This document shows, piece after piece, positions 19,179 to 39,936 of a stretch of DNA of 64,000 nt (the stretch's first letter is position 1; each line of letters opens with the position of its first letter). The position numbers were made by a program, and so were the translations under genes. The notes beneath the pieces are model-generated. The model saw only the letters and a program-made list of their open reading frames with translations. It was not told the origin of the DNA and did no database searches. Source of the DNA: an uncultured Gammaproteobacteria bacterium (GTDB lineage Bacteria; Patescibacteriota; Microgenomatia; UBA10105; UBA927); NCBI GenBank assembly GCA_964515005.1, contig CAZEVT010000003.1, forward strand, positions 12,815-76,814, written 5' to 3'.

Positions 19179-20213
19179 ATGGTAGACAAATTAGTTTCGA
19201 TTATTATCGTCAATTGGAACGGCATTAAATGGCTACCGGGGTGTTTTGGGTCGCTTGCGGCGCAGGACTACAAAAACCATGAAATTATTTTTGTCGATAA
19301 TGCCTCGAAGGATGAATCTGTATCGTGGGTTAGAAAACATTATCCAAAAACAAAAATTGTTATAAATAAAGAAAATCTCGGTTTTGCCGATGCCAATAAC
19401 GTAGGCTTCAGGAAAGCAAAAGGGAAATATATATTGTTTCTAAATAATGACACGAGGGTTACTAAAACATTCTTAAACGAGTTGGTGAAAGTTATCGAAA
19501 GCCACAAAAAAATTGCAGGAGTGCAAAGCAAAATTCTCCTCATGGACCATCCAGATACCCACGATAGCGTGGGCGCGTTTCTAACGCCGACGGGATTTCT
19601 TTACCACTATGGCTTTGGGAAAAAGGACCAAAAAAAATATGACAAGCAAATTGATCTTTATACCGCTAAAGGCGCCTGTATGATGTTTAAAAAAGTAGTT
19701 CTGGATCGAGTGACGGTGAATAGTGATATTTTCGACCCGGACTATTTTGCCTACTTTGAAGAATCTGACATGTGTCACAGGGTGTGGCTGGCGGGTTACA
19801 GGATCGTCTATGCCTACGATTCGGTAATTTACCATAAGATGGGCGCCACAAGCGCAGGCATGAATAATGCATTCATCCAGTATCATTCTTTTAAAAACAG
19901 GATCCGCTCATATCTCAAAAACTTCGGTACGCTATGGCTCTGGACCATTTTACCTGTTCATTTGGTGCTTTGCGAGATCTATGCGATCGCTTCGTATCTA
20001 CGGGGCAACTGGGCACTCGGATGGGCAATAGAGCGTGCCTACTGGTGGAATATAAAGCATTTTTCGGAAACGGTATCGATTAGGCGGAAAATCCAACGTG
20101 ATATTCGGATTGTTCCCGATTCGGCTATAGAAAACTTACTATTAGTTAGACCAAGACTTACCTATTATAAAAATCTAATTTCAGGGGACTTAGTTTCCTA
20201 TGAAGATAAGTAA
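19179..20213 (+). CDS. GT2 family glycosyltransferase (rhamnosyltransferase-like)
   Basis: VSIIIVNWNG...IIFVDNASKDES...LNNDT. Confidence 0.85.
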   Translation: MVDKLVSIIIVNWNGIKWLPGCFGSLAAQDYKNHEIIFVDNASKDESVSWVRKHYPKTKIVINKENLGFADANNVGFRKAKGKYILFLNNDTRVTKTFLNELVKVIESHKKIAGVQSKILLMDHPDTHDSVGAFLTPTGFLYHYGFGKKDQKKYDKQIDLYTAKGACMMFKKVVLDRVTVNSDIFDPDYFAYFEESDMCHRVWLAGYRIVYAYDSVIYHKMGATSAGMNNAFIQYHSFKNRIRSYLKNFGTLWLWTILPVHLVLCEIYAIASYLRGNWALGWAIERAYWWNIKHFSETVSIRRKIQRDIRIVPDSAIENLLLVRPRLTYYKNLISGDLVSYEDK

Positions 20214-20946
20214 CAACACCATTAAAAAATCGCAAAGGGAAGAGTTTAATAGCTTGCTTCGTGAAGCAAGGCAAGAATACAGCTCTTTTGTTGAGGACTT
20301 TGCATCACGACATGAGCTTAATACACTTTTACGTTTTATGCCAAACTTGTCCTCGTCTTCAATTTTAGACATTGGCTGTGGGAGGGGTCGTTTTGCAATC
20401 CCTATCGCAAAAATAGCTAAAAATGTTGTCGGCATAGATACGTCTGATTACTCAATTAAATTATTTTGTGGTCAGATAAAAAAAGAACGCCTTCAAAATA
20501 TCTCAGCCCGTGTCATGGATTTTCATGATTTACCAAACGAAAAGAAATTTGATTATGTCCTCATGGTAAACGCGGTTCACCACATTCCGGAAATGAAAGT
20601 GTTACTGGAAAAAGTACGAAAGGTTCTCCGGAAGAACGGTAGACTCATCATTTATGAATTTAACCCGCTCAATCCCCTTTATATACCATTTTTAATTTAT
20701 TATAAACAGGCTTCAATGCATATGAATAGGGAATACTTCCGTAGTAATATATGGACGATGGGTAGGATTTTCGGTCGCTCGAACTATTCTGAAGTCAGTA
20801 AGTTTAGATACGGATTCCTGCCAACGGTTCTCTATAATGTCTCACCGATTTTTGTGAAGATAAATACAGCACTTAATTCCATACCATTGTTGAATCAGCT
20901 CTGTGCGTTTCATATACTTTCGTATAAAATAAGAACACGTGAATAA
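20200..20946 (+). CDS. Class I SAM-dependent methyltransferase
   Basis: ILDIGCGRGRF motif I, with DxxxxxxxxAxxxL and LxxGG-type motifs downstream. Confidence 0.7.
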   Translation: MKISNNTIKKSQREEFNSLLREARQEYSSFVEDFASRHELNTLLRFMPNLSSSSILDIGCGRGRFAIPIAKIAKNVVGIDTSDYSIKLFCGQIKKERLQNISARVMDFHDLPNEKKFDYVLMVNAVHHIPEMKVLLEKVRKVLRKNGRLIIYEFNPLNPLYIPFLIYYKQASMHMNREYFRSNIWTMGRIFGRSNYSEVSKFRYGFLPTVLYNVSPIFVKINTALNSIPLLNQLCAFHILSYKIRTRE

Positions 20947-20980
20947 AAATGACAAATAAACTATATTTTAGTACAGAATT

Positions 20981-22099: not shown

Positions 22100-22882
22100 A
22101 TGACATCCAATGATTTGACCATATTGTTTTTGTCTTGTGACAAATATTCTGATTTGTGGCGGCCCCTTCTCTACTGCTTGCGCAAATATTGGAAAAATTG
22201 TCCCTACCCGTTATACCTGGGAAGCAATACCATGCCCCTAAAAGACAAACAGATACAAACGATACTCTCCGGACCGGACACAGATTGGTCCTCAAGCCTT
22301 CAAGCAATCCTCAAACAGATAACCACACCATATGTTTTTATCTGGCTAGATGACATTTTCCCGATTAAGAGAATCCAATCACAGGATTTTGCTGAGGCGC
22401 TGGAGTTTATGAAAAAACATGATGGCAAACATATGCATATGTTGCCCTCGCCGAAACCGGACAGCAAAACATCCGATGGACAGTATGGCCTCTATGAGAA
22501 AGGCACCCCGTATAGGTGCACCGCATTGGGTTTTTGGAAAGTCTCCTATTTACAAGATTTACTAATTCATAGAGAAAACCCTTGGAATTTTGAAGTCATG
22601 GGATCGTATCGAAGCTCATATGTAGATGGTTTTTATTGCACGATGAGGCCATTATTTCAGTCGCTTCATGTGATTGAGAAAGGACGGATTTTCCGAGCCG
22701 CATATGAGTACTGCCACGCTCATTCGATACCTTTATCAATAGGGAATCGGTCAGTACTTGCCAGTGCATTTCAATTGAGAAGCGAAATTCAGAAATTTTA
22801 TTTTAACAGCGTGAAGCATATTCCTTGGAAGATCCGCGTATCTATGATGAACGTATTGCGAAAATTGCTTATTAGTTATTAA
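22100..22882 (+). CDS. Hypothetical protein, possible GT-A-like nucleotide-sugar transferase
   Basis: 260 aa, soluble, with LSCDKYSDLW and IWLDDIF (DxD-like) motifs. No confident family. Confidence 0.3.
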   Translation: MTSNDLTILFLSCDKYSDLWRPLLYCLRKYWKNCPYPLYLGSNTMPLKDKQIQTILSGPDTDWSSSLQAILKQITTPYVFIWLDDIFPIKRIQSQDFAEALEFMKKHDGKHMHMLPSPKPDSKTSDGQYGLYEKGTPYRCTALGFWKVSYLQDLLIHRENPWNFEVMGSYRSSYVDGFYCTMRPLFQSLHVIEKGRIFRAAYEYCHAHSIPLSIGNRSVLASAFQLRSEIQKFYFNSVKHIPWKIRVSMMNVLRKLLISY

Positions 22883-22903
22883 TAGTTTGTGTATAATGAC
22901 GAT

Positions 22904-23872
22904 ATGAAAAAAGCACTCGTTACCGGAGCAGGCGGCTTTATCGGTCACCATCTAGTCAAAAGGCTTGCTGGGGAAGGATTTTGGGTTCAGGGTGTTGATC
23001 TTAAAAAACCGGAGTATAGTAAATCAGGAGCAGATGAATTTATTATCGGAGATCTTCGTGACCAAAAATTTTGTCAGAAAATTTTAAACCACACATTTGA
23101 TGAAGTATATCAGCTAGCAGCCGATATGGGCGGTGCAGGCTATATATTTACCGGAGACCATGATGCGGATGTCATGCGTAATTCTGCACAGATTAATCTC
23201 AATATGCTTCATTTTGGACGACTTGTGAAGATCAAAAAAATCTTCTTTTCTTCGTCAGCATGTATTTATCCGGAGCGGAACCAGGTAGACCCAAACAACC
23301 CAAACTGTTCAGAAGAGTCAGCCTACCCTGCGGCTCCCGATAGCGAATACGGCTGGGAAAAACTCTTTGGCGAGCGCATGTTTCTCGCATACAGTCGGAA
23401 TTATGGAATGGAAGTACGTATCGCTCGCTTTCACAACATATTTGGGCCAGAAGGCAGCTGGAACAACGGTAAGGAGAAAGTGCCATCAGCAATATGCAGG
23501 AAAGTGGCCGAGGCAAAAGACGGCGGAACTATAAAGATGTGGGGGGATGGAAAACAGACAAGGTCTTTCCTCTATATAGATGAATGCCTTCATGGCGTAA
23601 GGAAGTTAATGAATAGTAAGTTTACAGGGCCTGTGAACATTGGTTCAGAAGAAATGGTTTCTATAAACGGATTAGCTAAAATGATTATGGAAATAGCAGG
23701 AAAGAAGTTGAAAATAAAACACATTCCAGGACCACAAGGGGTGAGAGGCAGAAAATCAGATAATAGATTAATTCAAGAGAAGCTTGGTTGGACGCCGACT
23801 GCGTCTTTGAAAAGCGGACTGGAAAAAACGTATATTTGGATTGATGAACAAGTTCATAAATCCGGCAAATAA
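22904..23872 (+). CDS. gme: GDP-mannose 3,5-epimerase-like SDR (GME family)
   Basis: A long collinear match to the GME signature: AADMGGAGYI, SSSACIYPE, RFHNIFGP.G.W, MWGDGKQTRSF, IDECLHG, IPGPQGVRGRKSDN, KLGW. ATG 22904 (MKKALVTGAGGF) lies 6 nt after a TATAAT box; the ORF track's GTG start at 22889 is less likely. Confidence 0.8.
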   Translation: MKKALVTGAGGFIGHHLVKRLAGEGFWVQGVDLKKPEYSKSGADEFIIGDLRDQKFCQKILNHTFDEVYQLAADMGGAGYIFTGDHDADVMRNSAQINLNMLHFGRLVKIKKIFFSSSACIYPERNQVDPNNPNCSEESAYPAAPDSEYGWEKLFGERMFLAYSRNYGMEVRIARFHNIFGPEGSWNNGKEKVPSAICRKVAEAKDGGTIKMWGDGKQTRSFLYIDECLHGVRKLMNSKFTGPVNIGSEEMVSINGLAKMIMEIAGKKLKIKHIPGPQGVRGRKSDNRLIQEKLGWTPTASLKSGLEKTYIWIDEQVHKSGK

Positions 23873-23891: not shown

Positions 23892-24716
23892 ATGATCACA
23901 AATTTAGTTATAGGTTCTGAGGGCGGAATCGGTACCTCGTTATGTAAATTCCTCGAAAAAAAGAATGAAAAGGTAGTACATTTTGATATTAAGAAAGATG
24001 AAAAAGAGGACGGGAGAGTTTTTAAATTCGATTTTAAAAATATAGATAATGTTTATTTTCTCGCTTGGGATGTCGGAGGTTCAAAATATTTATACGAGTC
24101 TAAAGTGCAAATGTCCCAGCTTAAGTGGAATTTGCAGTTAATGGCCAATATTTTTGAGCACATCGAAAAAGACAAGAAAAAATTTTTGTTTGTTTCCAGC
24201 CAGTTATCCGAAGAGTGCGATACGGTCTATGGCGTAACCAAAAGGCTAGGAGAAGTCTGGACGCATTTACTTAAAGGAGCGTGCGTCAGAGTGTGGAATG
24301 CCTACGGGGTAATGGAAGAGCAAAATATAAAAAGTCATGTTATCTCAGATTTTATTTCTCAGGCCCTATTAAGTGGAAAAATTAAAATGATGACAAATGG
24401 AGAAGAATGGCGTCAATTTACGCATATAGACGACGTCTGCAATGCATTTTACATGGCTTTACGTACCAATAATTTGCGTAGAACTGTGTACGATGCAAGT
24501 AGCTACGAATGGGTTCGCATAATTGATATCGCGCAAATAATTTGTGATTTAACCGGTGCAAAATACTATCCTGGAAGGACAAAAGGTCACGATCCACTGC
24601 CGTCACTCAATATGGGGAGATTACCCGGGTGGCTGCCTCGTGTTGCATTAAGGGACGGCATACAGAATATGATCTATCAAACACAGAAATCATTACAACA
24701 TGTTAAAAAGAAATGA
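23892..24716 (+). CDS. SDR-fold NAD(P)-dependent sugar epimerase/reductase (RmlD-like size)
   Basis: N-terminal glycine-rich GSEGGIGTSL and a YGVTK (YxxxK) catalytic motif, 274 aa. Confidence 0.5.
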   Translation: MITNLVIGSEGGIGTSLCKFLEKKNEKVVHFDIKKDEKEDGRVFKFDFKNIDNVYFLAWDVGGSKYLYESKVQMSQLKWNLQLMANIFEHIEKDKKKFLFVSSQLSEECDTVYGVTKRLGEVWTHLLKGACVRVWNAYGVMEEQNIKSHVISDFISQALLSGKIKMMTNGEEWRQFTHIDDVCNAFYMALRTNNLRRTVYDASSYEWVRIIDIAQIICDLTGAKYYPGRTKGHDPLPSLNMGRLPGWLPRVALRDGIQNMIYQTQKSLQHVKKK

Positions 24717-24718
24717 TA

Positions 24719-25711
24719 TCACCGATACAATTTAGATAGATAATTGTTGACAAGGGCCTTTGTCGTGTAGCTTGCATGGGCTTTTTTATACGCGCTTTCG
24801 ATAATCCCCTCATATTTTTTATAATTACTAAGTATTTCTTGAAGTTTTTCATCTAGCTTGCCATACTCATAATAAATAAAATCCTTACCGGGTTCGAAGA
24901 AGTTTTCAATAATGTTAAAAGGATCTTTCCGGCAAAGAATAAGCGTTCGGCACAAGGCGCTTTCAAATATCCTATTCTTCACCTGCGGTATTACAATATT
25001 TTTATTACTAAACATCTCCCAGAAACGATACCATGGCGGAATGAATCGGAAGGCCTCGTTTTTGCGCCAGTCCTTTGTCCTCCAGATGAAAAAAATGTGA
25101 TCAGCCCGCGGAAATAATAAGTTGTGAACTAGGGCTACCTTGCTTTGCGCGAGTAATTTGAGTTTGTCTGGGTACGATACGTCAAAATTGGTGACAAGGT
25201 TGTGCACGCGTTGTGAAACAAATCTGTAGTTATAGTTGCTCATAGTTTGGATGTCCTCCAGAATGCTCGATGAGACTATGCTACCTATGTAAATGATGTC
25301 GAATAGTTTTTTGGTTTTTGGCGGGATATACTCCTCGTTGATAGGGTAAAAGATCGGAACTCTCTTATTATTATGTTGTCTTTTATTTAGCCATGTTGCC
25401 GTATAGGGGCAGATAGTGAAAATTTTATCAAAGTACCGATCATAACTGTCTGTGTCGTCAGGAAGACAAAACTTATTCGGTTCTTCAAATTCCAATCGTA
25501 CGAGCTTACCGGACAGAATGTTGTTTAATTCATTTTTAGATAAATTAAATTGATCCCATTGATAATATTGACCGAAGCCACCCTCTATTAAAACAAAATC
25601 CGCGCATTGTTTTTCGAATTGTTTAAGATGGTAAAATTGTCTTAAATCATCACGGCGCCCTATGTTTTTACCCGTTGGAAGAACCCGCATACTATATTCT
25701 CCTTTTTGCAT
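24719..25711 (-). CDS. Hypothetical protein (candidate novel glycosyltransferase, e.g. fucosyltransferase-like)
   Basis: 330 aa, soluble, with no recognisable motif. It sits among nucleotide-sugar and methyltransferase genes. Confidence 0.3.
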   Translation of the reverse strand: MQKGEYSMRVLPTGKNIGRRDDLRQFYHLKQFEKQCADFVLIEGGFGQYYQWDQFNLSKNELNNILSGKLVRLEFEEPNKFCLPDDTDSYDRYFDKIFTICPYTATWLNKRQHNNKRVPIFYPINEEYIPPKTKKLFDIIYIGSIVSSSILEDIQTMSNYNYRFVSQRVHNLVTNFDVSYPDKLKLLAQSKVALVHNLLFPRADHIFFIWRTKDWRKNEAFRFIPPWYRFWEMFSNKNIVIPQVKNRIFESALCRTLILCRKDPFNIIENFFEPGKDFIYYEYGKLDEKLQEILSNYKKYEGIIESAYKKAHASYTTKALVNNYLSKLYR

Positions 25712-26681
25712 AGAGCTCTATGCTGTCTCCAACCTTAAAAAGGTCTAAAAGAGGTGATAATGAGAACATTTCCAGTAATTTAACAGGAATTGTATATATG
25801 CTGGAGTTTAGTCTGAATATCCGAAGAAAACTTCGGGAGAATATGCCCGAAGATTTCGTTCTCACATAGACAACACGAAATCCATTGTTTCTCATAAGGT
25901 GGGTAAGTCCTCTTATTGTATGATGCGTCCGGTGAAATGGAAGGTGTAAAAACATGTACCCTCCGCAGAGGCGTATGAGCGTTTCATAATTAGGAACACC
26001 AATAATCAGTTCGCCATTTTTCTTCAGAAATTTGTGTGCCCTTTTCAGTTCTGTATTTGGATCGACCAAGTGTTCGACCACGTGGTTTAATCGTACGATG
26101 TCGAACTTCGTATGGAGTTTTGCGACGGCTTCAAGATCAAGGTACGCCCGTATTCCATGGGACCTAAGTTTCTTAACTAATTTTTTGTCAATTTCTGTCC
26201 CGTATGCCGTGCATCCGGCCTTTTGCGCAATTTTGAGAAAATGACCCCCGCCACAGCCAATGTCTAATATTTTGATTCCTGTTGCAGTTTTGGTAGTGAA
26301 TAGTGGGTACGTTTGGAAAAGATAAGTGAAGAAAGGAAAAGTAAGAAACTTTTTTAGAATTAGCCCTTTCGTACTGAGACATGCAGTCATTACTTGTTCT
26401 TCAATGTACACGAGTAGTCTATAAGCGAGGGTATTACTAATTTTATCGTCGTGGGTATACCCGCTATAGTTTTTATAAATTTTATTCAGTTGCGTCTCCG
26501 TGTAGAACGGATAGGAATATCCCGTTCCACAACGGCGGCAGGTGTATATAGTATCGCACGTCGAAAAATCGTCGCGATATACCTGCGAATTGAAAACGAG
26601 ATTTTTTGTGATTGGAGCACTACACACTATACAGCGACCGTGTTTGTAGGTTTGATAATAATCGCTTAAGATCGTTTTCAT
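25692..26681 (-). CDS. SAM-dependent methyltransferase with N-terminal zinc-ribbon (C-methyltransferase-like architecture)
   Basis: CIVC...CRRC ribbon, then ILDIGCGGGHF motif I. Confidence 0.65.
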   Translation of the reverse strand: MKTILSDYYQTYKHGRCIVCSAPITKNLVFNSQVYRDDFSTCDTIYTCRRCGTGYSYPFYTETQLNKIYKNYSGYTHDDKISNTLAYRLLVYIEEQVMTACLSTKGLILKKFLTFPFFTYLFQTYPLFTTKTATGIKILDIGCGGGHFLKIAQKAGCTAYGTEIDKKLVKKLRSHGIRAYLDLEAVAKLHTKFDIVRLNHVVEHLVDPNTELKRAHKFLKKNGELIIGVPNYETLIRLCGGYMFLHLPFHRTHHTIRGLTHLMRNNGFRVVYVRTKSSGIFSRSFLRIFRLNSSIYTIPVKLLEMFSLSPLLDLFKVGDSIELYAKRRI

Positions 26682-32019: not shown

Positions 32020-32687
32020 ATCGACAACAATCATTTTACGATAAGATTCCAGAATATGTTGAATTACAGGGCTATAACCCTGATAAAATCCGATTTATTC
32101 TCGATTCCGTTGACACAGGACTACGCATCTTGGATGTAGGATGCAACAACGGATTTATTGGGTCCATGCTTTTGAGAAAAAAGAATGACGTATACGGAAT
32201 TGACATAGCAGAACATAAAATACGCAGAGCGAAGAAGCGCGGGGTAAAAGCCATTGTAATTGATGTAGAAAATGAAAGCTTCCCGTTCAGATCAAATTAT
32301 TTTGACATTGTGCTGCTTACGGATGTTATAGAACATGTATTTGACACGGATTTGCTGTTACAAAAAATTTACAAGGTGCTTAAACCGGGAGGAACCCTCC
32401 TTATTACGACCCCCAATGTTGCATCGCTCGGCAGACGACTGATGCTTCTGTTCGGAATAAATCCGTTTTTGGAATATTCGACTCGCTACATCGACTATGT
32501 GCCTCGTCCGGTCGGCCATATAAGATATTACACGCATTCTGACCTTCGTCGTCAGCTGGAGCGCAATAATTACCGAAGCGTCATCACCAAAGGCGATCGT
32601 GTTAACTTTATTCTATTTTCGAATATATTTGCAGCGTTTTTGTTTCCGTCGTTGTCAGTCGATATACTTTGCCGAGCCACGAAATAA
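31998..32687 (+). CDS. Class I SAM-dependent methyltransferase
   Basis: ILDVGCNNGF motif I and the VLKPGGTLLITTPN motif. Confidence 0.75.
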   Translation: MAYSNAMNRQQSFYDKIPEYVELQGYNPDKIRFILDSVDTGLRILDVGCNNGFIGSMLLRKKNDVYGIDIAEHKIRRAKKRGVKAIVIDVENESFPFRSNYFDIVLLTDVIEHVFDTDLLLQKIYKVLKPGGTLLITTPNVASLGRRLMLLFGINPFLEYSTRYIDYVPRPVGHIRYYTHSDLRRQLERNNYRSVITKGDRVNFILFSNIFAAFLFPSLSVDILCRATK

Positions 32688-32691
32688 TTCT

Positions 32692-33612
32692 ATGCATTGT
32701 ATTGTTTGCGGTTACACCGCCTGGACATACGTATTTGCCGCACAAGATCGGATGTTCGGATTACCCGGGCAGTTCCGTGAGTACCGGTGCACTCACTGTG
32801 GATTGATGCGTTTATACCCGAAACCATCAAAGGAACAGTTAAAAAAATATTATCCATCCGCGTCGTACTACTCGTACAGGAAGACACGAAATTATAATTT
32901 TTTCAGGAGCCTGCGATCGTATCTCATATCTCATTTATACCGACCTTCCGTATGGTCTGTCATTATCGAGATATTTGTGACAGTTCCCGCGATGCCCCGC
33001 ATACGCCGCGGTCGCATACTTGATGTCGGATGCGGGAGTGGGGAGACCATGTCACTCCTTCAATCGGTAGGATGGGATGTGTATGGACTGGATATTGATA
33101 AGAACGCCATTGGCGTTGCGCGAACACAGGGGTTGCAGCATGCGTCCGTCGGTTCTCATGAAGATATAGGGAAATACCCGGATCATTTTTTCGATGTCAT
33201 ACGCATGTATCACGTTATTGAACATTTATCCGATCCTTTGCTCTGTCTTCGACTTGCACGTAGAAAGCTTAAGTCAGGCGGAGAGATAATTGTCGGTACA
33301 CCAAACGAAGCGAGCTTTGTTGCGAGAGTCGCCAGACAATATTGGTATAATTTGGATTGCCCGAGGCATCTCTATTTGTTCACCCCACAAACGCTCGGCC
33401 TGCTGTTGAAAAAAGCCAAGTTTACGAGTCTTCAGATGAATTTTTGTTCAGCTGGAGGGGTCGTGGGGAGCATGCAATACGTATGTAACGAAATATTCTC
33501 TAAAGATATTAATTTAATAAATCGATTGTGGGTCGTTTTATTGGTTTACCCGTTTGAGTGGTTCCTCGATCGATTGGAGCTTGGTGACGTCTTTGTGACA
33601 TATGCGAAGTAA
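32692..33612 (+). CDS. SAM-dependent methyltransferase with N-terminal zinc ribbon
   Basis: CIVCGY...CTHCG ribbon, then ILDVGCGSGE motif I. The likely start is ATG 32692. Confidence 0.7.
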   Translation: MHCIVCGYTAWTYVFAAQDRMFGLPGQFREYRCTHCGLMRLYPKPSKEQLKKYYPSASYYSYRKTRNYNFFRSLRSYLISHLYRPSVWSVIIEIFVTVPAMPRIRRGRILDVGCGSGETMSLLQSVGWDVYGLDIDKNAIGVARTQGLQHASVGSHEDIGKYPDHFFDVIRMYHVIEHLSDPLLCLRLARRKLKSGGEIIVGTPNEASFVARVARQYWYNLDCPRHLYLFTPQTLGLLLKKAKFTSLQMNFCSAGGVVGSMQYVCNEIFSKDINLINRLWVVLLVYPFEWFLDRLELGDVFVTYAK

Positions 33613-36571
33613 TATGTGGAAAAAATTCATCGCGTTTTTGTACCGTAACTTTGAATACGCTTTTGTCATCATTCTTGCATTCCCACCGCTCCTTTGGTTT
33701 CGCGACGGGTATGTACTCTTAGGTCACGATGCCGGGTTCCGACTCGATTATCTCTCTCAGCTTCCCAATGTATTCTATTCTTGGAATTCTACATATAACT
33801 TCGGAATTGACTGGAGCATGTTTAAGGGATTTCTCGTAACTCAATTTCCGGAAGTTACGTTTTCCGTTCTGACAGGTTCATTTGCCGTAGGAGAAAAACT
33901 GTCTCTCATTTTCTGGTTTGCGCTTATGGGCATAGGGATGTTGACCCTGCTTCGGAGTGTATTTCCGGCACCAACATACAGATTATTTAGATTATTTTCA
34001 AGCACCTTTTACATGTATAACTTTTTTATCCTGAGCGGTTGGACTATTGGCGAACGAGCGAAATTCTCCCTCTGGGCTGCGTTGCCGATTGGACTGCTTT
34101 TGATATACAACGTATTTGTCCGCAATCATTCCGTTATCCGAAACGGAATATGTTTCGGGTTGCTGTACTTTTTCCTTAACGGCGGAGGTGTTCTGCCGTT
34201 GTATGGCGGCACCGTCGTCGTTTTGGGTCTGGCATTTGTCTACTTCACGATACTGAGATTTAGAAAAGACGGATGGAGTGCGGTATGGTTTTGTAGCAAG
34301 GTGATATCGGCTTTTGTACTTCCGTTTGTCTTGTTGAACGCCTATTATATAGTTCCAAATGTTGGACTGCTAAAAACTAGCTACGGTTCTTCTGTTGCGG
34401 CTCAAGGGGGTATAGACGGACTTATCGCATGGGAGCGGGGTATTAGCCAAAATGCGTCGTTTTTTAACGTCATTCGGCTTCAGGGGTTACCTGATTGGTC
34501 GCCAGGCGCCGCGCAGCAGTATATCCATGCTTTTCTTACTAATCCATTTTTGATTATTTTCAGTTTTATTCCCATTGTTTCTATTATTCTGGGGTTTGCA
34601 TGGATACGGTTTGCCAACAGCACAAAAGAACAGCGGTTATTGGTAATATTCCTCATTCTCCTTCTCCCGTTTGGTCTGGTGTTAACAATGGGAACGCATC
34701 CACCGACCGGAATTCTGTACGAATTTGCCATGAAAAAGATTCCAGGGTTTGTGATGCTGCGTTCCAGTTTTTATAAGTTTGCGCCGGCTTTTTGGTTTCC
34801 TATGATTGTACTTTCCGGCTATTTTTTGAATCAACTTTTACTTCGAGTAAAGAAAAGCCCAAAGGTATATCAGATTATAGGCATATGCGCAATCATTGGT
34901 CTTTTGGCCTATCATTATCCGTTTTTTACCACAGACGCATTTACACTATCCGATAATTTTTCTACCCGCGTACGAATTCCGTCATATCTGGCTGACATTA
35001 CCACTCAAGTGAAGAGTCACGTGGAGGAAAGCAGCGCGATTCTTGTCGTGCCCAAAATGGAAATGTATTTTCCTGACTTACCGGTGGATACGTATACTTG
35101 GGGCTATTTCAGCCTGGATATTTTACCCCGTAATGCAATCAACAGACGGTTTATTGCGAATGATGGGCACAACCCGATAGTTCAAAGTCTTTATAACGCG
35201 CTCTATGCAGGCGATGCAGAAGCGACAACATACCTTGCGGGAGTTCTTCGCATCGATTACATTCTTTGGCGTGGGGACGCGAGACTGAGCGTGCAAACAC
35301 AGCTATATGATTCTCCTGATATAGCCAAGACTTTACTCGATACGAATCCGGATTTTAAGCGTATATTTGAAACCGAGTCATGGAGTTTATATAAAATTAT
35401 TCGGCAAGAAGTCGAGCAAAAAATATATGCTACCACATCGGTCGCCGCGTATCGGGGATCGGACGAGGCCGCCGGATTTCTCATACAGGATAAAGAGGTT
35501 CGTGATACGCTCACATTGGCAAAAATTCAGGATACCAGTCAACTTCAGAACATGCCGTATCAACGTCTGTTCTTTGAGGCAGAATGCAGTATGTGTGTGA
35601 AAAACGAATTTCAGAGTCTTGTCGACTCAATTGCTCTACCCAATAAACGTCTGACTCCGGCGTCTCCACTGTTTATGTTTGAAACATGGCGACAAAGCCA
35701 GCTTACGAAGCGCGTAGCTAACCTACCAAACGAACGCATAGACGCAGATCTCGCATTAGCGCAAAACTTTCTCTCTTATGTGAACGCGTTGAACAGACCA
35801 GAGTATTTTGTGCAGTACCTATCATACATGAATGATGCGATGGGTACCTGGGATGGATTCAAGGGGAGAGATAGGAATACGTATGCGATTCGATTACTCG
35901 CGTATATAGAGTCCCATGTGCATGCGCTCGCATCTCTCCAGGGGATGTCCGGTGCCGATGCTGTTTCTCAACGACTTGATGAAATGACGAAGAATTTGCA
36001 GAGGAACGTCTGGATGTCCGAAGGCAGTACATACAGATACATGATTTTGCTTGATGAAGAAGGCACGTATGAGTTGGAAATGAATACAAATCCGTCTGAC
36101 GTTGTGCACATATCACTAGATGGGGTAACACATCAATTAGGTTCACCTGCACGTTTGACATCCGGTTTGCATACAATAGAGGTATCCTTGGTTGACGAGC
36201 ATGTTTGGCGGCCGTATGTGTTTTTGAAAAAATCTATCCAACGCGATTTCGGTAGTCCTCCGCACATTACCTTTACAAAATTGAATCCGACCAAATATAT
36301 CGCGCATGTGAATAACAGTTCGGATCGCCAATTTTTGTTAGTGTTTAAGGAGCAGTATGATCCCCGGTGGACGACATCCATCACGGGTGCGACACACGTC
36401 ATGGTCGATGGATTTGCGAATGGGTGGATTATCAATACACCGGGAGTATACGATGTTGAAGTGTACTATATGCCGCAGGGTTATTTTTATATTGGTCTTG
36501 TTATTACTGGAGGCACGATACTTATTATCGGAATAGCGTATGGTATGTCTATAATGAAGCGTAGAAAATAG
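33602..36571 (+). CDS. Very large membrane protein, unnamed GT-C-like family, with ~600-aa extracytoplasmic C-terminal domain
   Basis: 989 aa. N-terminal GHDAGFRLDY loop, KIPGFVMLRSSF motif, multiple TM helices, a long soluble region and a C-terminal TM anchor (GGTILIIGIAYG). Confidence 0.45.
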   Translation: MRSNMWKKFIAFLYRNFEYAFVIILAFPPLLWFRDGYVLLGHDAGFRLDYLSQLPNVFYSWNSTYNFGIDWSMFKGFLVTQFPEVTFSVLTGSFAVGEKLSLIFWFALMGIGMLTLLRSVFPAPTYRLFRLFSSTFYMYNFFILSGWTIGERAKFSLWAALPIGLLLIYNVFVRNHSVIRNGICFGLLYFFLNGGGVLPLYGGTVVVLGLAFVYFTILRFRKDGWSAVWFCSKVISAFVLPFVLLNAYYIVPNVGLLKTSYGSSVAAQGGIDGLIAWERGISQNASFFNVIRLQGLPDWSPGAAQQYIHAFLTNPFLIIFSFIPIVSIILGFAWIRFANSTKEQRLLVIFLILLLPFGLVLTMGTHPPTGILYEFAMKKIPGFVMLRSSFYKFAPAFWFPMIVLSGYFLNQLLLRVKKSPKVYQIIGICAIIGLLAYHYPFFTTDAFTLSDNFSTRVRIPSYLADITTQVKSHVEESSAILVVPKMEMYFPDLPVDTYTWGYFSLDILPRNAINRRFIANDGHNPIVQSLYNALYAGDAEATTYLAGVLRIDYILWRGDARLSVQTQLYDSPDIAKTLLDTNPDFKRIFETESWSLYKIIRQEVEQKIYATTSVAAYRGSDEAAGFLIQDKEVRDTLTLAKIQDTSQLQNMPYQRLFFEAECSMCVKNEFQSLVDSIALPNKRLTPASPLFMFETWRQSQLTKRVANLPNERIDADLALAQNFLSYVNALNRPEYFVQYLSYMNDAMGTWDGFKGRDRNTYAIRLLAYIESHVHALASLQGMSGADAVSQRLDEMTKNLQRNVWMSEGSTYRYMILLDEEGTYELEMNTNPSDVVHISLDGVTHQLGSPARLTSGLHTIEVSLVDEHVWRPYVFLKKSIQRDFGSPPHITFTKLNPTKYIAHVNNSSDRQFLLVFKEQYDPRWTTSITGATHVMVDGFANGWIINTPGVYDVEVYYMPQGYFYIGLVITGGTILIIGIAYGMSIMKRRK

Positions 36572-36580: not shown

Positions 36581-38092
36581 ATGTTTCTTTGGTATTTTGC
36601 TTCAGGCGATTTGGAGTTTTTTTGGAAAGAACAGTTGCAGGTTCTTTCATGGTTGCCTCAAGTGTTTCGTGAAGACATCGGATTTGGATTTAATATGCTT
36701 CTGAGCCTGTGGCTCGACTACCCGTTCCGAATTGTATTGAAGATACTATCCGGCATGGGTTTATCCTGGTTTATTATAGAAAAATTATTGTGGCTGTCGG
36801 TTTTATTACTCGCTGTCTATTCATCCTATCTATTGGCGTCACGTATATTGGGGAAAAACGTGTTTACGTATTTGGCGCCCGTCATCTATGCCACAAACAG
36901 TTACTTCTTGCTTCTTTTCAGCGGGGGACAGTTGGGGGTTGCGTTTGCGTACGCAATCGCACCGTTTGTTCTGATGAAATTTTTGCAAGGCAAGGCTATA
37001 GCAAATGGTCTGTGGCTCGCGCTTTTGGTTGTATTCGATCTTCGTATTGCATATTTGGTTGTTGGCGCAATTGTGTTATATCTGATACTTGAGAAGAAAT
37101 TTAGCTCGTTTTATTCTTTAGGAATTTCCCTCGCGGTTGCGGCGAGTGTACATCTGTATTGGATTTTACCCACAGTGTTGGCCAGTCGCGGAACTGCAGG
37201 TTTAGGAGAGCAATTTACCAACCCCGGCATGCTCAAGTTTTTGAGTTTTGCGGATTTCTCACATACGCTCGCGCTTCTCCATCCCAACTGGCCGGAGAAT
37301 TTGTTTGGAAAGGTGTATTTCTTGCAGCCGGAGTTTTTACTCTTGCCAATCATTGCATTTTCCGCGCTTTTATTTCGTGAACAAAAAATTCGTTTCTTTG
37401 CGCTACTGGCCCTAGTGGGAGCATTTTTTTCGAAAGGAGTTCAAGAACCCCTCGGGGGGATTTTCCAGTGGATGTTTACGTATATCCCTGGGTTTGTCAT
37501 GTTCCGAGATCCTACGAAATTCTATGTATTGACTGCAATCGGGTACTCTGTACTTATTCCGTTTGCTCTAAAACGAATGAACAAAATGATACTCTATATA
37601 TGTTTTATTCTTTTTTGGATTTTTACCGTGCGAGCTATCAATGTACGGCCGGTCCAACTTCCGCAGGAATATGTGCAGTTAAAAAATCTTCTTGTTTCGG
37701 ATGCCGTGCCGTCGCGGACGTTATGGATTCCGCAAAAAGAAAACTTCGCTTATTTTTCGGACATTCACCCGATTTTGATATCAACAGCAACTGCATCCAT
37801 AGATTCGAGCGTAAAATATGTTATTGTACCGACCGACGTGAATAAACGCATTTTTTTGAATGATTACAAATTTGATCTGTCAGTTCGAACAAAGCTGATT
37901 GATGAGCTAGGATTAACTTTAAACAGAAATCCGTCCTTTCGTGATCTTGCTGTATTTGAAAATCCAGATTTTACACAGATGCAGAGCACGGTGCCAGCGA
38001 TTGCAGTCAAGCAGCAACGATTGGCAAACGTGGGGCTCTTAGCCAGCATTGTTTCACTCGTTGGCTGGATAATCGCACGAAAAGTATTATGA
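36581..38092 (+). CDS. Polytopic membrane protein, same unnamed family (short form)
   Basis: 503 aa with SGDLEFFW near the N-terminus and a YIPGFVMFRDP motif. Lacks the long C-terminal domain. Confidence 0.4.
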   Translation: MFLWYFASGDLEFFWKEQLQVLSWLPQVFREDIGFGFNMLLSLWLDYPFRIVLKILSGMGLSWFIIEKLLWLSVLLLAVYSSYLLASRILGKNVFTYLAPVIYATNSYFLLLFSGGQLGVAFAYAIAPFVLMKFLQGKAIANGLWLALLVVFDLRIAYLVVGAIVLYLILEKKFSSFYSLGISLAVAASVHLYWILPTVLASRGTAGLGEQFTNPGMLKFLSFADFSHTLALLHPNWPENLFGKVYFLQPEFLLLPIIAFSALLFREQKIRFFALLALVGAFFSKGVQEPLGGIFQWMFTYIPGFVMFRDPTKFYVLTAIGYSVLIPFALKRMNKMILYICFILFWIFTVRAINVRPVQLPQEYVQLKNLLVSDAVPSRTLWIPQKENFAYFSDIHPILISTATASIDSSVKYVIVPTDVNKRIFLNDYKFDLSVRTKLIDELGLTLNRNPSFRDLAVFENPDFTQMQSTVPAIAVKQQRLANVGLLASIVSLVGWIIARKVL

Positions 38093-39936
38093 TACTTATT
38101 CTTATTTTTTATTTATTCTCAACGTTTTTCCTGGGCTGGACCATAGTCAAAAAGTGGTTTGGAGGCTTGCCGACACTTCTGTCAATTGTGGGCGCTTTTT
38201 TGCTGGGAACGGGGATAGGAGTACCGATTACCTATTTCCTGGCAGTTCTTTTTTCTAAAACTAGTGCGCCGATATTGTGGGGTACGATCACGGCTAGTGC
38301 AGCGGCAATTGTCATCAGATATCAGTTATCTCATCCAAAGGCTGATCGTCCTCTGGACGATGTTATCAACAAGAATAATAAAATATCTTTGAGCGAAATA
38401 GCTCTTATCGTATTCTCCATGGTTTTCAGCACGTGGCTTATGACCAAGACGTTTCACGGGAATACGGCAGGAGAGCTATTTGTGGGAAGTAATAATATTT
38501 TTGATTTTGGATTTATGGTTGGGCTCGTCCGGTCGATATCGTGGGGGTCAAATATTCCGATACAGGAACCGTTTTTTGCAGGGTTCCCGCTTTTTTACCA
38601 TTTTTTCTTCGCCTTTTGGGTCGCTCTATGGGAATATTTTGGCGTTCCCATAGTCTGGGCGATGAATATCCCGAGCATACTTTCGTTTACTGCGATGCTT
38701 GTCGTTATATATTATTTGCCTCAAATTATCGCAAAGCAAAAACCCCTGGTTGGATGGATTGCGGTTCTTTTGACCATCACCAATAGTTCACTCACATTTT
38801 GGAAGATTGTAGGCAAACAGGATATCTGGCATCTGTCGACCTATCCATTTGCCGGACCGTTTGACGGATCTACGATTTCCATTTTTGTGACGCTCAATAG
38901 CTACGTGAACCAGCGTCATTTGGCGTTTGCTATCGCATATACGTTGTTTTTATTTCTTGTCTTTATCGTCTGGTTACAGCAAAAGAAAATTTCTCTATCC
39001 CATTCAGTAAAGCTCGGTGTGCTTACTGGTGTTTTATTTTTGTGGAATACCGTGGTGTTTCTTTTGGCCGTCGGAATATTCGGGTTCGTATTTGTTATGC
39101 AAAAGCGATGGAAGTCGGTGATTGTCTTTGGGATGACTGCAGCAACTGTCGCAATTATCGTCTTAGCGCCACAGGCAACGTTGCTATACAAAGTCTTACC
39201 ATTCTTGGGTTATCTGACAGAATCGCAGCGAAGTCTTTTCATACCCACGTGGAATATAGCGGAATACCTTTGGGAAAATTTGAGCATTCTCCCTGTCGTT
39301 GCTGTGTTGGGTTATATTGCTCTGACGAAAAAGACAAGACAATTTCTGCTGCCCTTTATTATTTTCTTTGTGGGCGCATGCATGCTTGCGACGGTCGGAA
39401 AGCGCGGATTTGATCAAAAGCTTCTATCATTTTTTATCATCGGTATCAATGTACTCGCCGCGGTTGGGCTGATGTGGTTGTGGGAGAGGCGCACCGTATT
39501 TTTTCGGGCATGTGCGATTGGTTTGTGCGTTATGCTGACCGTTTCGGGAGTCATAGATCTCTTTCCGATAAAAAACGAATTCGCATACCCTTTAATCGGG
39601 AAAGACAGCCTTCCGCTTATTTCGTGGATTCGGACGAATACAAACAAAAATTCAGTTTTTGTCTCGTATGAGGATATGATTGACCCGGTCGTGCTTGGAG
39701 GCAGAACGAATTACTATGGATTTTTCAAGAATGTCGGTCAATATGACCGTTCTGCGGATGTCAGACGTATATATGCAGGAGATGTTTCTTACGCAAAGAC
39801 GATCGGCATATCCTATATCCTCGTGCCGAAATGGCAGAAAAACGATTTTCCGTATGTGGCTGATACAGAGAATTTACGGAAACGCGTGGGAGTTGCATAC
39901 GAAGACAGCCGCTTCACCGTGTTTGCTATTGAGTAA
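38089..39936 (+). CDS. Polytopic membrane protein with C-terminal soluble domain (possible GT-C glycosyltransferase)
   Basis: 615 aa, about 13 TM helices, conserved loop residues. No assignable family. Confidence 0.35.
   Translation: MILILIFYLFSTFFLGWTIVKKWFGGLPTLLSIVGAFLLGTGIGVPITYFLAVLFSKTSAPILWGTITASAAAIVIRYQLSHPKADRPLDDVINKNNKISLSEIALIVFSMVFSTWLMTKTFHGNTAGELFVGSNNIFDFGFMVGLVRSISWGSNIPIQEPFFAGFPLFYHFFFAFWVALWEYFGVPIVWAMNIPSILSFTAMLVVIYYLPQIIAKQKPLVGWIAVLLTITNSSLTFWKIVGKQDIWHLSTYPFAGPFDGSTISIFVTLNSYVNQRHLAFAIAYTLFLFLVFIVWLQQKKISLSHSVKLGVLTGVLFLWNTVVFLLAVGIFGFVFVMQKRWKSVIVFGMTAATVAIIVLAPQATLLYKVLPFLGYLTESQRSLFIPTWNIAEYLWENLSILPVVAVLGYIALTKKTRQFLLPFIIFFVGACMLATVGKRGFDQKLLSFFIIGINVLAAVGLMWLWERRTVFFRACAIGLCVMLTVSGVIDLFPIKNEFAYPLIGKDSLPLISWIRTNTNKNSVFVSYEDMIDPVVLGGRTNYYGFFKNVGQYDRSADVRRIYAGDVSYAKTIGISYILVPKWQKNDFPYVADTENLRKRVGVAYEDSRFTVFAIE

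Follow-up and report, generated by a model that had tools for sequence, protein, structure and literature searches.

Why does a stretch of some 20 kb in the middle of a surface-glycan locus differ in base composition from the DNA on either side, and was it exchanged as a cassette? In the window (the whole 64,000-nucleotide stretch of DNA analyzed here), this glycan locus spans at least ~57 kb, reaching the left end of the window and adjoining RecO, GlyRS, and the dcw cluster. Taking our proposal whole, including the inferred function, we consider it probable that the interval at 19.2 to 39.9 kb is the variable center of the locus, a mosaic exchanged by recombination. The host is probably a member of the Patescibacteria (CPR); the named homologues of its proteins are distant (Parcubacteria, Moranbacteria, Microgenomates, and Patescibacteria, 35 to 55% identity).

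Sliding GC falls from 0.46 to 0.48 on the left to 0.37 to 0.40 at 19 to 30 kb and 0.42 to 0.45 at 30 to 40 kb, and then rises to 0.48 to 0.51 on the right. The best maximum-likelihood model with two change points put the borders at 19150 and 40150 (LLR of 127), and binary segmentation added a third break at 29875, giving a GC content of 0.464 on the left, 0.390 in segment A (19.1 to 29.9 kb), 0.433 in segment B (29.9 to 40.15 kb), and 0.490 on the right. When 250-bp blocks were permuted 1,000 times, the LLR never exceeded 32, compared to 124 observed; resolved in such blocks, the left border lies at 18.0 kb, and it is therefore located only to ~18.0 to 19.2 kb. Mean gene GC3 is 0.403 in segment A and 0.454 in segment B, whereas the left flank has 0.495 and the right 0.533 (Mann-Whitney p = 6e-7 and 2e-4); RSCU correlates at 0.81 between the two flanks, but segment A correlates with the left one at 0.43 and with the right one at 0.16. 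GC-corrected tetranucleotide correlations to the flanks are 0.73 to 0.82 inside the interval and 0.85 to 0.93 outside it. FYMINK amino acids are enriched and GARP amino acids depleted inside, indicating that the proteins themselves are AT shifted. The AT-rich stretch that the original prediction had placed by eye from about 19 to 20 kb to 33 to 39 kb is thus borne out by sliding GC and change points, and the codon usage and tetranucleotide profiles proposed as a check deviate as well; only its flanks "near 50% GC" were set too high (measured, 0.46 to 0.49).

Table 1. Genes of the low-GC interval and its borders, with the basis of each assignment
Coordinates	Strand	Product	Basis or remark
16616..17590	+	Fcl-like GDP-L-fucose synthase	NCBIfam NF047922, 470 bits (cutoff 500)
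17587..18306	+	FkbM-family methyltransferase	PF05050, E = 1.3e-23
18299..19177	+	Trm112-like zinc-ribbon + class I methyltransferase	Pfam methyltransferase domains
19179..20213	+	GT2 glycosyltransferase	PF00535, E = 1e-27; first low-GC gene
20200..20946	+	Class I SAM methyltransferase	PF13847/PF08241
20981..22036	-	NanM-like putative sugar O-methyltransferase	TIGR04371, 154.8 bits (cutoff 44)
22100..22882	+	GT-A-fold glycosyltransferase-like protein	AlphaFold2 model + Foldseek
22889..23872	+	GDP-mannose 3,5-epimerase (GME)	A. thaliana GME 2c59, E = 2.4e-99
23892..24716	+	Extended-SDR protein, short (274 aa)	PF01370, E = 5e-20
24719..25711	-	GT-B-type glycosyltransferase (Glyco_trans_1_2 C-terminal domain)	PF13524, E = 1e-8
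25692..26681	-	Zinc-ribbon + class I methyltransferase	PF13489, E = 8e-22; CIVC...CRRC motif
26691..27554	-	FkbM-family methyltransferase	PF05050; TIGR01444, 83.5 bits
27633..28751	+	WecB-like UDP-GlcNAc 2-epimerase-family protein	PF02350, E = 8e-43
28723..29790	+	GT2 glycosyltransferase	PF00535, E = 3e-21
29787..31700	+	Polytopic membrane protein, ~9 transmembrane segments + soluble domain	Hydropathy scan
31687..32019	+	110-aa membrane ORF	ORF list; fills apparent gap
31998..32687	+	Class I methyltransferase	PF13489, E = 1e-22
32599..33612	+	Zinc-ribbon + class I methyltransferase	PF13489, E = 1e-25; CIVC...CTHC motif
33602..36571	+	AftD-like GT-C membrane glycosyltransferase (989 aa)	AlphaFold2 + Foldseek
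36581..38092	+	Polytopic membrane protein (503 aa), ~8 transmembrane segments	Function inferred from context only
38089..39936	+	Polytopic membrane protein (615 aa), ~13 transmembrane segments	Final low-GC gene
39954..40895	+	UDP-glucuronate decarboxylase (UXS)	Human UXS1, E = 3e-103
61582		RsmH	Methyltransferase elsewhere in window

The genes (Table 1) were compared with those of the relatives T5 (L005/L012), T7 (L007), T8 (L008/L009), L094, and L095 and, at the right edge only, L013. Left of the interval, the Fcl-like protein is 78 to 81% identical in T5, T7, and T8, and the FkbM gene at 17587 is found in every relative examined; the 18299 product, encoded by the final gene ahead of the GC change point, is equidistant from T5, T7, and T8 (~59% identity each), has homologues carrying PF03966, and shows a CPKC...CSNC motif on direct reading. 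Within segment A, the GT2 gene at 19179 (82.6% identity to T5 versus 71.7% to T8) and the 22100 gene are retained in all five left-side syntenic relatives, and the 20200 methyltransferase gene occurs in T5 and T7 and not in T8, L094, or L095. The 22100 product has no Pfam family, but its AlphaFold2 model (pLDDT of 91) retrieved B4GALNT1, TarP, and the WrtF fucosyltransferase as top Foldseek matches (E ~1e-7), and residue D85 of its W-L-D-D motif is invariant; a methyltransferase assignment was rejected in favor of this GT-A fold. Two proteins that had been set down as unknown are thereby placed, one as this glycosyltransferase-like protein and the other as the NanM-like enzyme at 20981, of which T5 has a shorter copy elsewhere (L005 18495-19121, minus strand). 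The GME aligns over its full length with 2c59, and in that alignment the catalytic Ser, Cys, Tyr, and two Lys positions are conserved; it is 86% identical in T5, and the T7 and T8 genes are not orthologous. GME and the short SDR are also neighbors in T5 (80%) and L014 (70%), and among 80 GME loci this pairing recurs only in T5 and one contig of 35.5% GC. The GT-B gene at 24719 has a 79% identical counterpart on the same strand in T5 and 46% identical ones on the plus strand in T7 and L094, while the FkbM protein at 26691 is 66% identical in T5 and 50% in T8, on the minus strand in both. The WecB-like protein scores 153 bits against TIGR00236 (cutoff of 210), with its N-terminal 100 amino acids unmatched, and is closer to T8 (71%) than to T5 (64%). 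Family- and structure-based matches thus confirm the GME-like, SDR, and UDP-GlcNAc 2-epimerase-like genes originally predicted.

The right half of the interval pairs AftD-like GT-C membrane glycosyltransferase genes with methyltransferases. The 29787 product, a putative GT-C-like protein by architecture only, has no Pfam match and is 69% identical to its T5 counterpart. The 31687 ORF has its T5 homologue in the transmembrane domain of a membrane-anchored methyltransferase (60% identity to residues 4-103 of the L012 8057-9052 product), and the methyltransferase that follows at 31998, probably starting at the ATG at ~32016, is only 28% identical to the T5 methyltransferase domain in the same position; relative to T5, 31687-32687 is a domain-level swap. 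A JGI contig carries a 223-aa methyltransferase upstream of its 33602 homologue. The 32599 gene likely starts at the ATG at 32692, giving a 306-aa product, and is 67% identical to a 304-aa T5 protein. The AlphaFold2 model of the 33602 product (pLDDT of 88) matches mycobacterial AftD (Foldseek E = 1e-13, TMq of 0.55) and then STT3, AglB, and PglB; the protein itself has no Pfam match, and its homologues carry PF11847. The last two membrane proteins are 67% (36581, no Pfam match) and 56% (38089) identical in T5 and 79% and 61% identical in L013. With UXS (92% in L013, 77% in T5), the conserved right flank begins and GC is back to normal.

The family-supported minus-strand genes, namely, 20981-22036 and the three across 24719-27554, form two blocks separated by the plus-strand genes 22100-24716, and their confinement to the interval, as predicted, holds. 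Two long minus-strand ORFs elsewhere (53625-54527 and 57560-58147) were rejected as genes, being antisense to ManC and RecO. Seven of eight methyltransferases had been assigned to the interval; of the eight in the glycan locus, we find six inside it (20200, 20981, 25692, 26691, 31998, and 32599), with two just left of the border (17587 and 18299), so that the methyltransferase cluster spans the GC border. The two zinc-ribbon enzymes counted inside are there, with CxxC...CxxC motifs read directly at 25692 and 32599. In a profile search, no methyltransferase matched an equivalog model.

All five left-side syntenic relatives retain the flanks, and each has its own central gene set. The left block is conserved through the GT2 gene at 19179 and the 22100 gene, and later genes differ in every lineage, with central modules that include GME, DegT plus a C-methyltransferase, carbamoyltransferase plus ATP-grasp plus HAD, and acetyltransferases plus DegT; content variability thus begins after ~20.2 or 22.9 kb and not from 19179. 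Entering from the right, L013 goes from 97% (GalE) and 92% (UXS) identity through 79% and 61% to unrelated genes, and relative to T8 the genes at the right end of the locus are 88 to 91% identical and the inner ones 32 to 84%. In the central part sampled, GC dips at the syntenic position in T8 (from 0.50 to 0.36-0.42), L094 (from 0.53 to 0.40), and T5 and only slightly in L095; T7 has no dip and is uniformly low in GC. The comparison of relatives proposed earlier thus turned up no identical cassette common to all. Of the exchanged cassette itself, the variable center between conserved flanks stands, and the discrete recent insertion does not, as the whole interval, minus-strand trio included, is syntenic with T5.

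The main alternative is vertical inheritance of a fast-evolving center that drifted toward AT through weak expression, relaxed codon selection, or AT-biased mutation, with independent gene loss and gain, and with shifts of closest relative reflecting rate variation. It has points in its favor: protein identity to T5 across the interval (52 to 86%) is like that of the flank genes (51 to 87%), the amino acid shift is what such drift would leave, and the dip is old, since it is seen in several diverged relatives. Nucleotide identity to T5 in segment A is only ~70 to 74%, so that any exchange must be old or its donor unsampled. Yet we regard this alternative as unlikely, because entire functional modules give way, lineage by lineage, to unrelated ones in the same place, because a domain was swapped at 31687-32687, and because the closest relative changes along the sequence. 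Quartet and p-distance tests covered the left flank, 19179 plus 22100, 26691, and 27633, with T8 taken as the closer relative from four left-flank genes and the right-end genes. The left-flank genes group the window organism with T8 (73% bootstrap; p-distance difference of +0.085, CI of 0.063 to 0.108), genes 19179 and 22100 group it with T5 (100% bootstrap), gene 26691 also falls on the T5 side (-0.165, CI of -0.225 to -0.104), and gene 27633 returns to T8 (+0.068). T8 is thus nearer on the left and at 27633 and T5 nearer by 0.10 to 0.17 in between, with CIs that exclude zero, and rate variation gives no such change of sign. By these distances and quartets, genes 19179-27554 are of T5 type between flanks of T8 type, that is, a recombination mosaic.

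The interval is neither a mobile element nor a recent one-off insertion. A genomic island, integrated phage, or ICE remnant would suit the abrupt compositional step at each end and the local strand inversions, but it is very improbable: every interval ORF of ≥150 aa is a glycan enzyme or membrane protein, and none is an integrase, transposase, recombinase, or phage gene; a scan of the genes at 30 to 60301 and at 61582-62406 found neither an integrase nor a transposase match; the window has no tRNA and no Rfam match; the borders carry no direct or inverted repeats; and the genes at both ends stay in place in relatives. The only notable inverted repeat is a SAM-binding motif common to two methyltransferases. 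The three recovered copies of the window population are identical (one clonal population). That an assembler joined a low-GC piece from another organism, as a compositional step in a metagenome-assembled contig might suggest, is the least credible reading of all, because assemblies made independently from other samples (JGI 3300010391 and Logan SRR6155509) cross both junctions (12532-29177 and 37724-41188) with 0 or 1 mismatch, ORFs abut or overlap at both borders (19177/19179 and 39936/39954), and relatives share the gene order over them.

We therefore favor a recombinationally exchanged center, in which gene modules would have been replaced over a long time by homologous recombination between related lineages, anchored on the left by Fcl, FkbM, the zinc-ribbon methyltransferase, and partly the GT2 and GT-A-like genes and on the right by UXS and GalE. 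The low GC would then mark the exchanged gene pool, with the T5-type part of segment A (19.2 to 27.6 kb) coming from a lineage of ~42% GC into T8-type flanks (47 to 50% GC). Substrates are assigned by homology, and we infer the order of steps, the glycan acceptor, and any antigenic role. ManC, encoded within the locus at 53868, would provide GDP-mannose, which GME, perhaps with the short SDR, would convert to GDP-L-galactose or GDP-L-gulose; a lipid-linked glycan may receive this sugar, along with others that include a ManNAc-type one derived through WecB, from the GT2, GT-A-like, and GT-B enzymes, and the four segment A methyltransferases (class I, NanM-like, zinc-ribbon, and FkbM) could O-methylate its residues. 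The segment B set (29.8 to 39.9 kb), comprising the AftD-like GT-C, three more polytopic membrane proteins, the 110-aa membrane ORF, and two methyltransferases, may lengthen or modify the glycan on the external side of the membrane, drawing on polyprenyl-phosphate-linked donors. With GME and the WecB-like epimerase inside, the sugar enzymes suggest that L-galactose or L-gulose and ManNAc-type residues are methylated, not the 6-deoxyhexose originally predicted: the window's single deoxyhexose enzyme, the Fcl-like one, lies outside the interval at normal flank GC, and the window holds no GDP-mannose 4,6-dehydratase. The suggested C-methylation is likewise unsupported, as the window has no PF08421/PF08484 enzyme, though T8 has one.

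Parts of this machinery recall better-known systems. Our GME resembles the plant and bacterial enzymes of the GDP-L-galactose/GDP-L-gulose route in its full-length 2c59 match, its catalytic positions, and the presence of ManC in the locus, but differs in being paired with a 274-aa SDR. The mycobacterial envelope is built with the GT-C arabinofuranosyltransferase AftD and bears O-methylated sugars on glycopeptidolipids and lipoglycans; the AftD-like fold of the 33602 product, the PF11847 of its homologues, and the methyltransferases beside glycosyltransferases are alike, whereas sequence identity to AftD is ~9% and the window yielded no genes for arabinose or decaprenyl-phospho-arabinose. Hypervariable metagenomic islands (e.g., SAR11 HVR2) are also rich in glycosyltransferases and methyltransferases and, like our interval, are surface-glycan regions of deviant composition that differ between related metagenome-recovered genomes, but they are defined by read under-recruitment, and the three recovered copies of our population are identical. 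The interval may also be likened to the O-antigen (rfb) and capsule (cps) loci known from Enterobacteriaceae and streptococci, where low-GC serotype-specific centers lie between conserved flanks that serve as recombination anchors, with no mobility genes required. Here too, GC below that of the genome, conserved anchors, and different sets of glycosyltransferases, modification enzymes, and sugar-nucleotide genes at the same site in relatives come together. In contrast to rfb and cps, however, our locus varies between lineages of 50 to 90% protein identity and not between strains of one species, is far larger (~57 kb), abounds in GT-C membrane glycosyltransferases, packs eight methyltransferases into 16 kb, and belongs to an uncultured, probably CPR host without serology. 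The pattern is thus of the O-antigen or capsule type, familiar in kind but met in an unfamiliar lineage, and its interest comes from that lineage and from the gene content.

One glycan locus fills the window up to 57.6 kb, and its centre is a region of low GC, as had been claimed for the interval 19179-39936. In 2-kb windows, GC is 0.46-0.48 on the left, 0.37-0.40 at 19-30 kb, 0.42-0.45 up to 40 kb, and 0.48-0.51 from there on. An unsupervised two-change-point fit over 1-57.6 kb put the borders of this trough at 19150 and 40150 (LLR 127), and binary segmentation added an internal break at 29875, which divides it into two sub-segments, A and B. The largest LLR in 1,000 permutations of 250-bp blocks was 32, compared to 124 observed. 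Because the left border moved to 18.0 kb at the resolution of 250-bp blocks, it is placed only to ∼18.0-19.2 kb. The checks on codon and tetranucleotide usage deviate as well: mean GC3 reaches 0.495 and 0.533 for the flanks but only 0.403 for A and 0.454 for B (Mann-Whitney p 6e-7 and 2e-4), the RSCU profiles of the two flanks correlate at 0.81 with each other but at only 0.43 and 0.16 with that of A, and the correlation of GC-corrected tetranucleotide usage (5-kb windows) with the flanks is 0.73-0.82 inside compared to 0.85-0.93 outside. The compositional deviation is more than a matter of amino acid composition alone. Scans for promoter-like and terminator-like sites stayed at background (42 found with 40.5 expected, and 10 found with 10.1 expected).

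Features of the glycan locus and its surroundings (positions in the window; single numbers are gene starts)
Feature	Position	Strand	Remark
GT2 and GT4 glycosyltransferases, Wzx-like flippase, DegT aminotransferase, GalE, UXS, ManC, Bac_transf initiating transferase, DUF4012 protein			genes of the glycan locus
Left flank			GC 0.464
Segment A	19.1-29.9 kb		GC 0.390
Segment B	29.9-40.15 kb		GC 0.433
Right flank			GC 0.490
Polytopic, GT-C-like membrane proteins (∼12)	30-9803, 29787-39936, 45246-49687		matches to PMT_2, PTPS_related/YfhO, AftD-like or Wzy_C weak or none
DPM1/AglJ-like GT2	10837-11523		same locus
Fcl-like GDP-L-fucose synthase	16616-17590		outside interval; 470 bits, just below 500-bit cutoff
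FkbM methyltransferase	17587		directly left of border
Zinc-ribbon methyltransferase	18299		directly left of border
Methyltransferases (six)	20200, 20981, 25692, 26691, 31998, 32599		inside interval
NanM-like putative sugar O-methyltransferase	20981	-	TIGR04371, 155 bits (cutoff 44)
GT-A-fold protein	22100-22882
Predicted GDP-mannose 3,5-epimerase (GME)	22889-23872		similar to solved GMEs over its full length
Further minus-strand genes	24719, 25692, 26691	-	Pfam support
Membrane ORF	31687-32019		110 aa, three to four helices
Class I methyltransferase	31998-32687
Zinc-ribbon methyltransferase	32599-33612
AftD-like GT-C protein	33602-36571		989 aa
UDP-glucuronate decarboxylase (UXS)	39954		first normal-GC gene on the right; E = 3e-103
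N-domain-only GT4 ORF	42209-42742		before full GT4
Polytopic protein	45246-48242		998 aa, ∼20 transmembrane segments, weak Wzy_C/O-antigen-ligase match
Split GT4	51730-52775		N-domain (176 aa) and C-domain (172 aa) ORFs
Glycine-tRNA ligase (GlyRS)	58214-59833		539 aa; NF003211, 614 bits
RecO, GlyRS, RsmH			right of glycan locus

Homologue searches combined with genomic-context look-ups yielded five syntenic lineages, all uncultured (T5, T7, T8, L094, and L095), and a further relative, L013, for the right border only; the species-representative collection held no close genome. The only conspecific sequences found, three in number, are 99.99-100% identical, and the next relatives reach at most ∼90% in protein sequence. 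Since the named, more distant homologues fall in Parcubacteria, Moranbacteria, Microgenomates, and "Patescibacteria group" MAGs, the window organism probably belongs to the CPR. All five left-side loci share a left block (GT2, GT4, DegT ... Fcl, FkbM, zinc-ribbon methyltransferase, a GT2 like that at 19179, (methyltransferase), and a GT-A-like gene as at 22100), after which their contents part. The window and T5 continue with GME, an SDR gene, and then a minus-strand GT, zinc-ribbon methyltransferase, and FkbM; T8 with GT2, DegT, SDR, a TylC3-type C-methyltransferase, and then a minus-strand FkbM; T7 with an all-plus-strand set including an acetyltransferase and DegT; L095 with carbamoyltransferase, epimerase, methyltransferase, SDR, ATP-grasp, HAD, and DegT genes; and L094 with a plus-strand GT. 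Segment B, too, is ordered in T5 as in the window, with a membrane protein of 628 aa, two methyltransferases, a GT-C of 889 aa, membrane proteins of 499 and 609 aa, and then UXS and GalE; acetyltransferase/DegT genes and two further membrane proteins come in addition. In L013, UXS and a GalE fragment are 92% and 97% identical to those of the window; identity falls to 79% and 61% for the two adjoining genes within the interval, and beyond them the genes bear no relation to those of the window. The centre of the locus thus differs in content between conserved flanks, with no identical cassette present in all relatives, and its content-variable part begins after 20.2 or 22.9 kb rather than at 19179. 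GC dips at the syntenic place in relatives, from 0.50 to 0.36-0.42 in T8 and from 0.53 to 0.40 in L094, mildly in T5 and weakly in L095 (T7 is uniformly low). The window genome has thus not acquired its trough by a recent insertion; low GC is an old feature that recurs in this part of the locus.

Sequence distances indicate that the relationships of genes inside the interval conflict with those of its flank. Across the locus, identity between the window and T8 is 88-91% at the right-hand end (ManC, Bac_transf, and DUF4012) and 32-84% for the inner genes. At 12779, 13574, 16616, and 17587, the window is nearer to T8 than to T5 (p-distance difference +0.085, 95% CI 0.063-0.108), and the left-flank quartet joins it with T8 at 73% bootstrap. 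At 19179, 22100, and 26691, it is nearer to T5 (-0.105, -0.12, and -0.165, CIs excluding zero), with 100% bootstrap for the corresponding quartet, and at 27633 it is back with T8 (+0.068, CI 0.022-0.12); the gene at 18299 is equidistant from all relatives. This incongruence concerns 19179-27554; on the T8 side, the comparison covered the contig outside positions 64008-86219, the counterpart of window 29-45 kb. Purely vertical descent of fast-evolving, AT-drifting DNA would account for the old trough and for the synteny with T5 but leaves the sign reversal of the relative distances and the replacement of modules unexplained, and we regard it as unlikely but not negligible. A T5-like donor lineage would explain the composition of the window, because the T5 locus has a GC of ∼0.42, near that of segments A and B. 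Of the horizontally exchanged cassette in the original prediction, exchange itself is thus supported, by content variability and by the incongruence at 19179-27554, while a discrete, fresh insertion is not, given the age of the trough.

The exchange does not look like the work of a mobile element inserted in the glycan locus. No ORF in 19-40 kb matches an integrase, transposase, or recombinase in Pfam or NCBIfam, the window contains no tRNA and no Rfam RNA family, and no repeats were found at the borders, all of which makes such an element very improbable. By analogy with O-antigen and capsule loci, homologous recombination in conserved flanking genes is the implied mechanism. Least credible of all is an assembly chimera, contradicted by independently assembled contigs from two other samples that cross both junctions (12532-29177 and 37724-41188) with 0-1 mismatches; the junctions are genuine and no assembly artefacts.

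The interval also holds the sole minus-strand genes of the window (20981-27554), as claimed: those at 20981, 24719, 25692, and 26691 have family support, and no credible minus-strand gene was found elsewhere in the window. Methyltransferases are concentrated here, but six of the eight, instead of the predicted seven, lie inside; the genes at 17587 and 18299 fall outside the border, and the eight glycan methyltransferases occupy 16 kb on both sides of the GC step. The product of 22100, considered as the seventh, "atypical" methyltransferase, is ruled out as such by its GT-A fold. Apart from the NanM-like subfamily match of 20981, no methyltransferase has an NCBIfam equivalog match; as general class I, FkbM, or NanM-like SAM enzymes, they presumably O-methylate sugar hydroxyls. 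The 110-aa membrane ORF occupies an apparent 298-bp gap before 31998. Its counterpart in T5, at 60% identity, is the N-terminal transmembrane domain of a protein of 331 aa (L012 8057-9052) in which membrane anchor and methyltransferase are fused; the methyltransferase domain of this T5 protein shares only 28% identity with the methyltransferase next to the ORF in the window, and 31687-32687 looks like the result of a domain-level swap or gene fission. The starts called for 31998 and 32599 are likely too far upstream: the likeliest start of the former is an ATG at ∼32016, which coincides in part with the stop codon that ends the 110-aa ORF, and that of the latter an ATG at 32692, giving 306 aa compared to 304 aa in T5. 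A scan of genome contigs with the 18299 methyltransferase returned a single distant locus (47% identity) in a non-CPR genome, the Bdellovibrionales MAG CAZATJ010000002.1 (L004 7454-9264), where it adjoins an Fcl-like gene (67% identity). This arrangement suggests that fucose synthase and methyltransferase are functionally coupled and travel together between phyla.

From the gene content, we infer a pathway in which ManC would supply GDP-mannose, GME would convert it to GDP-L-galactose or GDP-L-gulose, and the short SDR beside GME may further modify the product; GT2, GT-A-like, and GT-B enzymes would assemble side chains, and the WecB-like epimerase points to a sugar of the ManNAc type. The product of 22889 is predicted to be a bona fide GDP-mannose 3,5-epimerase, with E = 2e-99 and 336 bits to 2c59 compared to 113 bits for the next family, UXS. 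In the HMMER alignment, a Ser, a Cys, the Tyr-x3-Lys, and a second Lys are all five identical, residues which we take to have the catalytic roles described for A. thaliana GME. Among the 80 loci returned by a scan of metagenome contigs with GME, 79 are unrelated GME contexts from diverse genomes (median GC 0.54); the GME-SDR pair occurs in one (Ga0105240_10038425, L014 142-1949, GC 0.355), at 73% and 70% identity, and recurs in T5, which hints that the module circulates in low-GC lineages. The prediction of methylated 6-deoxyhexose fared less well. No fucose-type GDP-6-deoxyhexose pathway is found inside the interval, and none of the five epimerase/dehydratase-family proteins scanned is a GDP-mannose 4,6-dehydratase (best match to TIGR01472 gmd 47.6 bits, cutoff 415); since the Fcl-like gene lies outside and the window lacks this dehydratase, the island itself does not encode such a sugar. 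Judged by family assignment, the Fcl-like enzyme must use a substrate made by a gene elsewhere or act on something else. C-methylation finds no support either, since an NDP-sugar C-methyltransferase of the TylC3 type (PF08421/PF08484), as carried by the T8 version of the region, is absent from all methyltransferases of the window.

Two glycosyltransferases deserve attention. The product of 22100 has a GT-A fold (AlphaFold2 pLDDT 91), with B4GALNT1, TarP, and the fucosyltransferase WrtF as best structural matches and an invariant Asp within a W-L-D-D motif. Its family, of proteins of ∼260 aa, numbers at least 236 homologues, is confidently predicted to adopt a GT-A fold, and lacks a Pfam model; homologues at 45-47% identity occur in Thiotrichaceae, Lutibacter, and Deltaproteobacteria MAGs, and in each of the five left-side relatives the gene stands beside those for GT2 and methyltransferase. 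The product of 33602, in which Asp43 is invariant, joins a soluble C-terminal domain to a GT-C membrane fold (pLDDT 88, pTM 0.82), and its top three Foldseek matches are mycobacterial AftD (E = 1e-13 to 6e-12), followed by oligosaccharyltransferases. It has no Pfam match at E <= 5, the AftD-type PF11847 being recorded only in more distant homologues, and is therefore not a sequence-level member; its model predicts a protein that folds and works like AftD. PDB sequence searches with the products of 22100, 33602, and 20981 were uninformative. T5 and a JGI contig likewise have a methyltransferase directly upstream of the GT-C homologue. The combination, in segment B, of methyltransferases with the AftD-like GT-C and three more polytopic proteins suggests extracytoplasmic addition of possibly methylated residues from polyprenyl-phosphate donors. 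Weak matches to PMT_2, PTPS_related, or Wzy_C were obtained for some of the dozen or so polytopic proteins of the locus; that at 5684 has none, and the four of segment B lack a Pfam match even at E <= 5. Together with the DPM1/AglJ-like GT2, these proteins would imply extensive extracytoplasmic glycosylation from polyprenyl-phosphate sugars.

Several observations concern genes outside the interval. The split GT4 is split likewise in T8 (L009 5054-6041), and the N-domain-only GT4 ORF is found in T5 too (L012 22047-22583); given this conservation, both are split genes and not sequencing errors. The polytopic protein at 45246 shares only 32% identity with the protein at the corresponding position in T8 (L009 3-1730), with neighbours at 59-62%, and may be a second replaced gene. 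GlyRS, a genuine ligase, has the lowest GC of the window (0.33 at 58326-59675; whole-gene GC3 0.30). Its ends are near-identical to those of the 417-aa T8 version and its middle is divergent (46% overall), with ∼105 residues (roughly 140-250) lacking a T8 counterpart; its neighbours are 88% (DUF4012), 69% (RecO), and 87% (59843) identical. Partial replacement or an insertion within this housekeeping gene may be the cause.

To our knowledge, the surface glycans of CPR/Patescibacteria are almost uncharacterised; literature searches on CPR glycan islands and by assembly and run accessions found no paper. Members of this group live on other microbes, to which they attach, and encounter phages. A tentative, on balance doubtful, extension is that CPR/Patescibacteria lineages draw on a common, circulating pool of low-GC glycan modules (here one for a heavily O-methylated L-hexose based on GME, and one of methyltransferase and AftD-like GT-C that acts outside the membrane), shuffled by recombination at one chromosomal hotspot beside the dcw cluster, that the hypervariable glycans are the determinant of recognition and evasion for phages or the episymbionts' host cells, and that the pairing of methyltransferase and GT-C is a not-yet-described route to methylated residues on lipid-linked donors.

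The phenomenon as such is expected; the points of note are the likely CPR host, the density of methyltransferases, the bacterial GME module, the unclassified GT-A family, and the pairing of AftD-like GT-C and methyltransferases. In pathogens, a low-GC, recombining, variable glycan centre underlies serotype diversity, and CPR/Patescibacteria would share it if our reading is correct. The recombination anchors could then be placed in Fcl, FkbM, and methyltransferase on the left and in UXS and GalE on the right, and the GME, the GT-A family, and the GT-C paired with methyltransferases would be concrete enzymes to study. By analogy, the interval works like the variable, low-GC region that recombination exchanges within a gene cluster for a surface polysaccharide, with a putative antigenic role. 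In three respects, composition, content variability, and phylogenetic incongruence, it resembles the centre of O-antigen and capsule clusters, which is low in GC and differs between serotypes, and it appears to work like the glycan "metagenomic islands" of uncultured bacteria.
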